Sequence record: PQ093904.1
DNA length: 64,000 nucleotides
Source: Pseudomonas phage phi9_PA9
Direction: 5' to 3' (one strand)
The notes beneath the pieces are model-generated. The model saw only the letters and a program-made list of their open reading frames with translations, did not search any database and had not been told where the DNA came from. The translations under genes and the position numbers were made by a program. Numbering within the stretch: the first letter of the stretch is position 1; every line of letters begins with the position of its first letter. Below are positions 53,876 through 53,962 of this stretch, piece by piece.

Positions 53876-53962
53876 TGGCTGGTAAGGTAGGATTCGAACC
53901 TACGGTGGGCTTTCGCCAACGGATTAACAGTCCGCTCCCTGCTACCACTCGGGTACTTACCA
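53876..53962 (-). tRNA. tRNA with GUU (Asn) anticodon but type-II architecture (15-nt variable arm), G73, CCA encoded
   Basis: acceptor UGGUAAG/CUUACCA, D-arm CCCGAGUGGUAGCAGGGA (Tyr/Ser-like), anticodon arm GCGGA-CUGUUAA-UCCGU (identical to the E. coli tRNA-Asn anticodon arm), variable arm UGGCGAAAGCCCACC, 87 nt. Confidence 0.7.

Follow-up and report, generated by a model that had tools for sequence, protein, structure and literature searches.

The textbook bacterial class-II tRNAs, which carry a long variable arm, are those for leucine, serine, tyrosine and selenocysteine. A long arm combined with an anticodon that normally belongs to class I has been described for the nev-tRNAs of nematodes (PMC3333845) and for the allo-tRNAs (PMC5389517, PMC7609411). 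These tRNAs are charged according to their body (with Leu, Ser or Ala) and codons are misread, the allo-tRNAs having in addition 8/4 or 9/3 acceptor branches. The tRNA considered here, encoded by a Pseudomonas phage in a stretch of 64,000 nucleotides that was analysed as a whole (the window), likewise joins a long arm to a normally class-I anticodon. However, it has a 7/5 branch, and its discriminator and first base pair are those of its own anticodon family. On the evidence of its sequence, the gene is a genuine phage tRNA-Asn(GUU) on a class-II body resembling tRNA-Tyr.

Two kinds of ordinary tRNA are close to it. The canonical type-I tRNA-Asn (Escherichia coli asnT, or the 76-nt tRNA-Asn of phage phiKZ) has GUU, G73 and the U1-A72 pair in common with the window tRNA, but has a variable region of 5 nt compared to 15 nt, whereas the window tRNA has a class-II D arm, with a 3-bp stem and two additional nucleotides in its loop. 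The bacterial class-II tRNA-Tyr (E. coli tyrT/tyrU) shares with it the D arm CCCGAG..GG...AGGGA, the T arm AGGUUCGAAUCCU, a variable stem of 3 bp with 3-4 unpaired nucleotides after it, and G34 and U35. It is set apart by the window tRNA having GUU instead of GUA, G73 instead of A73, U1-A72 instead of G1-C72, and a variable loop GAAA. The gene itself has long been annotated, and the papers examined list it without remarking on its shape. A full-text literature search, which had most subscription journals and the 1980s T5 tRNA sequencing papers outside its scope, yielded no description of a long-arm phage tRNA-Asn and, in the same incomplete scope, no endonuclease cassette carrying a replacement tRNA.

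Fold and distribution of the long-arm tRNA-Asn

Six tRNA genes are called by ARAGORN on the minus strand of the window, among them a tRNA-Asn(gtt) of 87 nt, made up of 84 nt and an encoded CCA. Its features are as follows:

53876..53962, minus strand: class-II (long variable arm) tRNA-Asn(GUU), from ARAGORN, Rfam and the minimum-energy fold
53926..53928, minus strand: anticodon GUU (tRNA positions 34-36) in the loop CUGUUAA, from ARAGORN linear position 35
53904..53918, minus strand: variable region UGGCGAAAGCCCACC, from the minimum-energy fold, the ARAGORN drawing and covariation

Against the Rfam tRNA family (RF00005), the gene scores 55.8 bits (gathering score 29, E = 4.7e-10), the alignment placing an 11-nt insertion in the variable region. 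The minimum-energy structure obtained with RNAfold is a full cloverleaf with a variable hairpin; the energy z-score is only -1.75, and energy alone is not significant. The full read of the tRNA is UGGUAAG-UA-CCCGAGUGGUAGCAGGG-A-GCGGA-CUGUUAA-UCCGU-UGGCGAAAGCCCACC-GUAGG-UUCGAAU-CCUAC-CUUACCA-G-CCA, with U1-A72 as the first pair and G73 as the discriminator. Acceptor and T stems have the standard 7/5 lengths, and U8, A14, G18G19, U33 and the T-loop UUCGAAU are kept, the RF00005 score and a cloverleaf with the universal nucleotides together identifying the molecule as a tRNA. The D arm is of the class-II type, CCC-G-AGUGGUAGC-A-GGG, and its loop has two nucleotides (20a and 20b) beyond that of type-I tRNA-Asn. 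The variable region is laid out as 1 unpaired nucleotide, a 3-bp stem GGC/GCC, a GAAA cap and 4 unpaired nucleotides before the T stem, as also drawn by ARAGORN. Its length of 15 nt (above the 10 nt that mark class II), its stem-loop and the covariation described below assign the tRNA to class II.

This anatomy had been recognized in the original prediction, which described a long variable arm and a Tyr/Ser-like D arm on a tRNA with an Asn anticodon arm, and ARAGORN, Rfam, RNAfold and the sequence read bear it out. The 15-nt variable stem-loop that it proposed is found by both ARAGORN and RNAfold as a 3-bp stem with a GAAA loop, and U1-A72 and G73 are present in the sequence as given there. 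The anticodon stem-loop is, as it claimed, identical to that of E. coli tRNA-Asn, the sequence of which was verified in 5,425 E. coli genomes. Furthermore, the ARAGORN structure, named there as a check, has a long variable arm and no short loop.

The window region is 92-95% identical to the phiKZ-like jumbo phages of Pseudomonas aeruginosa, the closest being OMKO1, HUST_1 and fMGyn-Pae01. The tRNA-Asn itself has 100% identity to its counterpart in OMKO1, 98.9% to that in phiKZ and 89.8% to that in Psa21, which belongs to another genus. In the same search, 'tRNA-Asn' genes from unrelated phages, 80-90 nt long, were matched over part of their length. Five isolates were checked (Tequintavirus SHSML-45, Winklervirus X20, Phapecoctavirus nepoznato, Henunavirus pEp_SNUABM_01 and Psa21), and all five genes are tRNA-Asn(GUU) with G73 and a short GAAA-capped variable hairpin, their stems differing in a compensatory manner. 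Isolates carrying a long-arm tRNA-Asn include members of Phikzvirus, Tepukevirus, Tequintavirus, Winklervirus, Phapecoctavirus and Henunavirus.

A scan of IMG/VR with a pattern in which the Asn anticodon loop and the T loop had to be 15 nt or more apart gave at least 120 loci. Among the matches listed and the five isolate loci, 106 of 118 tRNA-Asn(gtt) genes called by ARAGORN are 79-91 nt long. From two collection scans and the phage isolates, at least 84 different tRNA-Asn(GUU) sequences with a long arm were obtained, and these come from many groups of phages. Among the matches listed, the 84 distinct sequences have G73 in 81/84, a GAAA loop in 40/84, a 3-4-bp stem in 60/84 and 3-4 unpaired 3' nucleotides in 65/84, and the class is characterized by a short variable hairpin that is mostly GNRA-capped. 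The second viral scan, with the anticodon arm CGGACUGUUAAUCCG as its pattern, found about 15 long-arm genes among the 120 matches listed, a share that holds only for this anticodon arm and in a prophage-rich collection. Long-arm versions of tRNAs for Lys, Thr, Cys, Ile and Trp also occur in phages.

In cellular genomes, the pattern scan (at least 120 loci) gave only about 10 complete long-arm tRNA-Asn genes among the 137 matches listed. The remaining cellular matches listed are 3'-half elements, an unrelated repeat and chance matches, and class-II tRNA-Asn as a normal cellular tRNA was rejected. When E. coli genomes were searched with the tRNA by BLAST, only weak plasmid matches were returned, a result that is uninformative at that database size.

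Across 25 diverse homologues, 94.7% of the cells in the alignment are paired compared to 65.8% in shuffles, and every helix, including the variable stem, has compensatory changes. In all three pairs of the variable stem both partners change, no more than one cell being unpaired, and the variants are GC/AU/UA, GC/UA/AU/CG and CG/AU/GC. Judged by this covariation, the fold signal of the long-arm tRNA-Asn is far above chance. The compensatory changes span very divergent phages and show that the fold is under selection.

Origin of the class-II body and its charging

In its core, the window tRNA matches E. coli tRNA-Tyr at 65% identity, E. coli tRNA-Asn at 52% and the canonical tRNA-Asn of phiKZ at 49%. 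Among its 50 nearest non-Asn neighbours, tRNA-Tyr forms the largest group, with 16 members. With the anticodon masked, the tRNA scores 32.5 bits against the Ser profile, 32.3 against Tyr and 24.9 against type-I Asn. By these sequence profiles, the body is closer to Ser and Tyr than it is to type-I Asn, and an origin from Tyr is not separated from one from Ser. Where the profile scores failed, the geometry of the variable arm separates the two, as seen from the tRNAs of the same loci among the matches listed:

tRNA-Ser: stem mostly 4-7 bp, 1 unpaired 3' nucleotide, G73 in 77/104
tRNA-Leu: stem 3-4 bp, 2 unpaired 3' nucleotides, A73 in 88/88
tRNA-Tyr: stem 3-4 bp, 3 unpaired 3' nucleotides, A73 in 56/56
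long-arm tRNA-Asn: stem 3-4 bp, 3-4 unpaired 3' nucleotides, G73 in 81/84

The window arm, with 3 bp and 4 unpaired nucleotides, falls outside the tRNA-Ser geometry, since among the matches listed 98/104 tRNA-Ser have a 4-7-bp stem and 98/104 have 0-2 unpaired nucleotides. The suggestion of the original prediction that the long arm acts as a mark for SerRS is not supported by this arm. The tRNA-Tyr identity (A73, G34, U35 and the anticodon GUA) is likewise absent, as the window tRNA has G73 and U36. As the arm geometry is Tyr-like and not Ser-like, the simplest origin is a Tyr-like tRNA in which GUA became GUU and A73 became G. The long arm would then have been inherited from the Tyr-like ancestor, the anticodon being shifted by a change of A36 to U and the discriminator changed from A73 to G. 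We infer that the long arm is a Tyr-like inheritance and not a serine identity mark. The idea of an evolutionary chimera, also raised in the original prediction, holds insofar as a class-II body with a shifted anticodon fits the 65% core identity to E. coli tRNA-Tyr. It does not hold as a one-off or local accident, since the tRNA belongs to an old and diverse class of phage tRNA-Asn with at least 84 distinct long-arm sequences.

[quoted passage not shown] The sequence of the window tRNA contains the complete AsnRS identity set (G34, U35, U36 and G73), as the original prediction had pointed out for GUU and G73, but the argument is inapplicable in a host that, by the same passage of PMC2330236, lacks AsnRS. 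It also contains the GatCAB determinant U1-A72. All Pseudomonas phage tRNA-Asn genes examined have U1-A72 and G73, type I and class II alike, while G1-C72 and G73 are found in the type-I tRNA-Asn of T5 and in four class-II tRNA-Asn genes of enterobacterial phages. The acceptor end of the class-II tRNA thus matches that of the type-I tRNA in the same phage group, which argues for the same charging route. Since P. aeruginosa is without AsnRS, charging with Asn would proceed via the host ND-AspRS and GatCAB.

The tRNA would be released from its precursor by RNase P, which would remove an upstream gene remnant and a linker (described below). The host ND-AspRS would then aspartylate it, reading GUU and G73, and GatCAB would amidate the product through U1-A72. 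The charged tRNA would read the abundant phage AAU and AAC codons as Asn. These two codons together account for 66 per 1000 codons in the long ORFs of the window, 79% of them being AAU. Decoding of AAU/AAC as Asn is, on these sequence features, the most likely function of the window tRNA. Expression of tRNA genes in related phages is indicated by the detection of phiKZ tRNAs in the tRNA fraction, dependent on the phage non-virion RNA polymerase (bioRxiv 10.1101/2024.07.31.605949), and by transcription start sites near phage tRNAs (PMC8244752).

The window tRNA has C10 and A38, while AspRS identity sets list G10 and C38. Along with the two nucleotides by which the class-II D loop is enlarged, these bases count against easy charging. 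As extra D-loop nucleotides are a GatCAB antideterminant elsewhere, amidation of the window tRNA is not assured.

The original prediction had considered ambiguous charging with Asn or Ser, and the same question arises for Tyr. SerRS (through the long arm and G73) or TyrRS (through the Tyr-like body, G34 and U35) might also charge the tRNA, and the AAY codons would then be ambiguous. Such a dual identity would fit the class-II body, G73, G2-C71 and C11-G24, which are all present, as well as the profile scores, in which Ser and Tyr exceed type-I Asn, and the listing of G34 and U35 in the bacterial TyrRS identity table (PMC9976931). It is nevertheless very improbable. The arm of 3 bp with 4 unpaired 3' nucleotides differs from the Ser arms, mostly of 4-7 bp with 1, and among the matches listed A73 in all 56 tRNA-Tyr stands against G73 in 81 of 84 class-II tRNA-Asn. 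The first base pair follows the type-I tRNA-Asn of the same phage group, and the tRNA has been conserved over the long term with covariation, which favours a precise function. In addition, AAY makes up 6.6% of codons and the window has no other tRNA-Asn gene; misreading would be costly.

The tRNA-Asn loci of phiKZ and of the window

In phiKZ, there are two tRNA-Asn genes: at locus 1 the canonical 76-nt gene beside tRNA-Asp, and at locus 2, at a distance of 2 kb, the class-II gene. At locus 2, the class-II gene is preceded by a 37-nt canonical 5' half ending in CUGUUA, followed by CGAUUUCAU. After the class-II gene come a hairpin and the HNH ORF PHIKZ296, which matches Pfam HNH_3 at 38 bits, and the sequence after this ORF, AUCACUGGGUCCCUGGUUCUAACCCAGGUCACGGAGCCA, is the 3' half of the same canonical tRNA-Asn gene. 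The insert of 774 bp, containing the class-II tRNA-Asn and the HNH endonuclease gene, thus lies exactly between A37 and A38 of a canonical tRNA-Asn, both halves of which flank it. At the same site with identical flanks, PA7 and fMGyn-Pae01 have an intact 76-nt gene, and among phikzvirus records about 10 have the filled and about 25 the empty site, so that filled and empty alleles with a precise junction exist in close relatives. The 3' half in phiKZ and the intact gene differ in their T loops, and the N-terminus of the phiKZ HNH protein looks frameshifted.

The same arrangement is found beyond phiKZ. In Psa21, as in L029 and L104, the class-II tRNA is directly followed by an HNH orthologue (63% identity), and in these three as well as in phiKZ the nuclease gene is inside the insert (HNH_3 at 38 and 45 bits). 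The order of tRNA 5'-half remnant, class-II tRNA-Asn, hairpin and HNH is seen in Psa21 and two metagenomic jumbo-phage contigs, and in PA1C, phiLBG22, phiHQ and BRkr at about 83% DNA identity. Rfam, in E-value mode, found no group I intron core across the phiKZ insert and its flanks, the only RNA found being tRNA, and a group I intron in the tRNA gene was therefore rejected.

Endonuclease-like ORFs within 400 nt accompany 18/63 class-II loci compared to 7/74 type-I loci (p = 0.007), a confounded comparison that is biased by seeds drawn from the class-II set and by a prophage-rich type-I control. In T5, it is the type-I tRNA-Asn allele that is overlapped by an ORF of the T5orf172/GIY-YIG clan, while SHSML-45 has the class-II allele at the same locus without this ORF. 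As this linkage is the opposite, the class-II form is not always the endonuclease-linked allele, and tRNA-Asn genes as such seem to be a recurrent target of endonuclease elements.

In the window, the class-II gene is found at locus 1, next to tRNA-Asp, in the following surroundings:

54015..54091, minus strand: tRNA-Asp(GUC), the upstream neighbour that defines locus 1 (ARAGORN, Rfam 68.4 bits)
53972..54008, minus strand: orphan 5' half of a type-I (canonical) tRNA-Asn gene, covering its positions 1-37, from sequence comparison with phiKZ
53963..53971, minus strand: 9-nt linker CGAUUUCAU, the left junction of the cassette, the same in phiKZ locus 2 and fMGyn-Pae01
53846..53869, minus strand: hairpin AAAGAGUAGC-UUCG-GCUACUCUUU followed by UAUGUU, the same after the phiKZ type-I tRNA-Asn at locus 1
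51807..51973, minus strand: locus 2, downstream of the PHIKZ297 homologue, with no tRNA by ARAGORN and BLAST

The orphan half is separated from tRNA-Asp by a 6-nt spacer, as in phiKZ, and its first 33 nt are 100% identical to the phiKZ type-I tRNA-Asn of locus 1, its anticodon being mutated to UUU. A tRNA-Lys(UUU) pseudogene between tRNA-Asp and tRNA-Asn was considered and rejected, the remnant being the 5' half of a type-I tRNA-Asn with G34 changed to U. Orphan half and linker together form a 46-nt stretch immediately upstream of the class-II tRNA. The hairpin is likely a terminator inherited from the type-I locus, to judge by its match in phiKZ; it was missed by a consensus terminator scan because the U run was counted within the stem.

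Locus 2 of the window lies beside the PHIKZ297 homologue (51977-52498). It holds the HNH and class-II cassette in phiKZ and an intact type-I tRNA-Asn in PA7 and fMGyn-Pae01, but in the window ARAGORN finds no tRNA there and neither type of tRNA-Asn gives a BLAST match. No canonical type-I tRNA-Asn gene is present in the 64-kb window, which spans the tRNA-gene region of phiKZ, and the class-II gene is therefore the only tRNA-Asn found in it. No HNH homologue is present in these 64 kb either. The locus-1 arrangement of the window is shared by OMKO1, fMGyn-Pae01, HUST_1 and Churi, with remnant and linker identical between the window and fMGyn-Pae01. However, fMGyn-Pae01 keeps a canonical gene at locus 2, while the window and OMKO1 are without one.

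The tract that was replaced at locus 1 begins in the anticodon loop and extends as far as the 3' end of the gene. Its left limit is the shared 5' half, and its right limit is a similar stretch, UUCUAAA(G)AGUAGC, found after both tRNAs. As the comparison with phiKZ indicates, the tRNA part of the cassette has in the window replaced the 3' half of the canonical tRNA-Asn gene beside tRNA-Asp. The bounds of the tract give the pattern that gene conversion from a cassette copy would leave, with the HNH gene not being co-converted.

The distribution of the cassette also bears on whether the tRNA it carries has a role. The class-II gene might be a neutral or decaying passenger, hitch-hiking on the endonuclease cassette while host tRNA-Asn serves translation. 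Its presence is indeed polymorphic among near-identical phikzviruses, the class-II gene being absent in KTN4, fnug and ANB1, and some phikzviruses are without any tRNA at locus 2; phiKZ replicates with both kinds of gene and its relatives with either one. Against this, the sequence is 98.9-100% conserved among carriers, all helices are intact, the CCA and the universal tertiary nucleotides are present, the discriminator and the first base pair agree with those of the type-I gene, and the compensatory changes between very divergent phages show that the fold is under selection. A passenger role has only a slim chance of being correct.

Replacement of the canonical gene and comparison with known elements

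The best joint explanation, of moderate confidence, is that the window gene is a Tyr-like class-II phage tRNA-Asn that is cassette-borne, has replaced the canonical gene and is charged with Asn. The HNH enzyme would cut canonical tRNA-Asn genes, and repair would copy the cassette into the cut site. The class-II gene would restore the supply of tRNA-Asn and, being too unlike the target to be cut, would itself be immune.

A further reading, compatible with this replacement by a cassette-borne tRNA, attributes a protective role to the arm. Adjoining the 3' strand of the anticodon stem, the long arm might shield tRNA-Asn from host nucleases while leaving unchanged the anticodon loop needed for charging. 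To our knowledge, no tRNA-Asn nuclease of phiKZ hosts has been described. In E. coli tRNA-Asn(GUU), the PARIS effector AriB cleaves between positions 40 and 41, an attack that phage tRNAs counter (PMC12409363), and phage tRNAs can evade anticodon nucleases (PMC10264068); the long-arm Lys, Thr, Cys, Ile and Trp tRNAs of phages would also fit a protective arm. However, the anticodon arm of the window tRNA keeps UAAUC|C of the AriB cleavage site in E. coli tRNA-Asn. In addition, since the T5 tRNA-Asn of the PARIS experiments is a 78-nt type-I tRNA and not class II, these experiments do not bear on the long arm and were rejected as functional proof for the class-II tRNA. An anti-defence role of the arm is, on balance, unlikely.

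Extended to the other isotypes, the long-arm Asn, Lys, Thr, Cys, Ile and Trp tRNAs might represent a phage-specific design that is kept by conflict and not by decoding. Nuclease cassettes would target canonical anticodon loops and carry a cleavage-immune replacement, the arm separating the DNA recognition elements and possibly shielding the RNA of the anticodon stem from host nucleases. This broader reading is tentative, and doubtful as it stands. If true, it would describe a self-rescuing homing element that replaces an essential-type gene instead of splicing out.

The findings are of interest to tRNA and phage specialists. A widespread class-II tRNA-Asn would mean that Asn charging systems tolerate a long arm, and that a tRNA body can pass from one amino-acid family to another through two changes, A36 to U and A73 to G; this may be of use in tRNA identity work and in the design of orthogonal tRNAs. 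The filled and empty sites of phiKZ and its relatives can serve as a directly testable example of an endonuclease element by which a tRNA gene is destroyed and a substitute provided. Such elements could explain why body and anticodon of phage tRNAs frequently disagree in isotype predictions, and why homing endonucleases are abundant in tRNA clusters. The class-II tRNA-Asn appears to be the only tRNA-Asn of the OMKO1-like phages, which are in use in phage therapy research, and the fidelity of its charging is therefore practically relevant.

Among known mobile elements, the homing of SegB and SegF provides a comparison for the phiKZ cassette. T4 SegB (in the tRNA cluster) and SegF, and the T5 HNH genes hegA, hegC and hegD, resemble it in having a nuclease gene adjoining tRNA genes. 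Free-standing homing endonucleases also share with it the filled/empty polymorphism in close relatives and the co-conversion of flanks. Unlike in intronless homing, however, the phiKZ insert lies inside the anticodon loop of its target tRNA gene, which is destroyed, and it brings along a complete, structurally different replacement tRNA with the same anticodon. Group I introns in bacterial and phage tRNAs are similar in being anticodon-loop insertions that carry an endonuclease ORF. In contrast to these introns, the phiKZ insert consists of a tRNA and a hairpin terminator, lacks a ribozyme core, and sits in an interrupted gene that is decaying.

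Long variable arms and anticodon-body combinations

The long-arm design of the phiKZ-like tRNA-Asn, in which the variable region forms a stem-loop, is not confined to Asn but extends to Lys, Cys, Ile and Trp isoacceptors, which normally belong to the short-armed type-I tRNAs. These forms derive mostly from phage contigs, the exceptions being the two Lys loci, and the D-arm type of the phiKZ tRNA recurs in some of them.

Long-arm tRNAs with a short GNRA-capped variable hairpin (L-numbers denote loci)
Lys (UUU), 88-90 nt: L325, L242 (cellular-genome records)
Cys (GCA), 84 nt: L044, L047
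Ile (GAU), 86 nt: L049
Trp (CCA), 84-87 nt: L017, L051

The E. coli plasmid NZ_CP032883.1 (5.8 kb; L358:354-442) carries an 89-nt class-II tRNA annotated as tRNA-Lys, with anticodon CUU, G73 and a Ser-like acceptor stem (GGAGAGG). The anticodon of this tRNA is from one family and its body from another. A further 13 records of E. coli plasmids contain the same type; the eight of them that were listed measure 5.7-8.8 kb. A second reading is possible for one tRNA of the window:

55065-55141, minus strand: tRNA with anticodon CAU, annotated as Met

AUA accounts for 13 of every 1000 codons in the window, so this tRNA could alternatively be a lysidine-dependent tRNA-Ile2. A sequence of ~60 nt, GURCUUCGGGGUAAGUGUUAAUCCGUCGAUGAACCCAUCCAGGGUUCAACUCCGGCGC, is no tRNA but a multi-copy repeat with several copies on each contig of Pseudomonas sp. 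BF1_57, Denitrificimonas and Thiopseudomonas (L272, L314, L293, L245, L274, L306 and L257).

Nuclease genes and tRNA remnants at tRNA-Asn loci

Upstream of the phiKZ HNH gene PHIKZ296, on the minus strand (L356:900-985), lies a stretch encoding the conserved N-terminal region of the HNH protein (NGYRALYLPEHRQAKANPK), which is in frame with PHIKZ296 and lacks a start codon; an ATG is present one frame off and closely precedes an A-rich run. This anomaly may be caused by a frameshift, a sequencing error or gene decay.

In MAGs of Verrucomicrobiota, Acidobacteriota and Desulfobacterota, one to three tandem units of ~320-550 bp each are located downstream of a normal 75-76-nt tRNA-Asn gene (L315:4950-5600; likewise L247, L261, L323, L344, L350 and L353). 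Within each unit, a small ORF of the GIY-YIG type (Pfam, 56 bits) comes first and the 3' half of a tRNA-Asn second; this half begins within the anticodon loop (GGCUGUUAAUCC) and bears an extra hairpin. These units look like another nuclease element targeting the anticodon loop of tRNA-Asn genes.

In Psa21, a phage of a different genus, ~600 bp between tRNA-Asp and the class-II tRNA-Asn (L361:2560-3160) contain several tRNA fragments, among them a 3' half with a CCACCA end and a D-arm-like piece. These fragments suggest that tRNA genes at the locus have been disrupted repeatedly.

The tRNA-Asn locus of T5 and SHSML-45

The tRNA-Asn gene of T5 (L360:6953-7525) is of type I, measures 78 nt and has a divergent anticodon stem. 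It is overlapped by the ORF T5.069, which encodes a T5orf172/MUG113 domain of the GIY-YIG clan. SHSML-45 (L363:1283-1590) shares the downstream flank of this locus with T5, but lacks the T5.069 ORF and has the long-arm tRNA-Asn at this locus.
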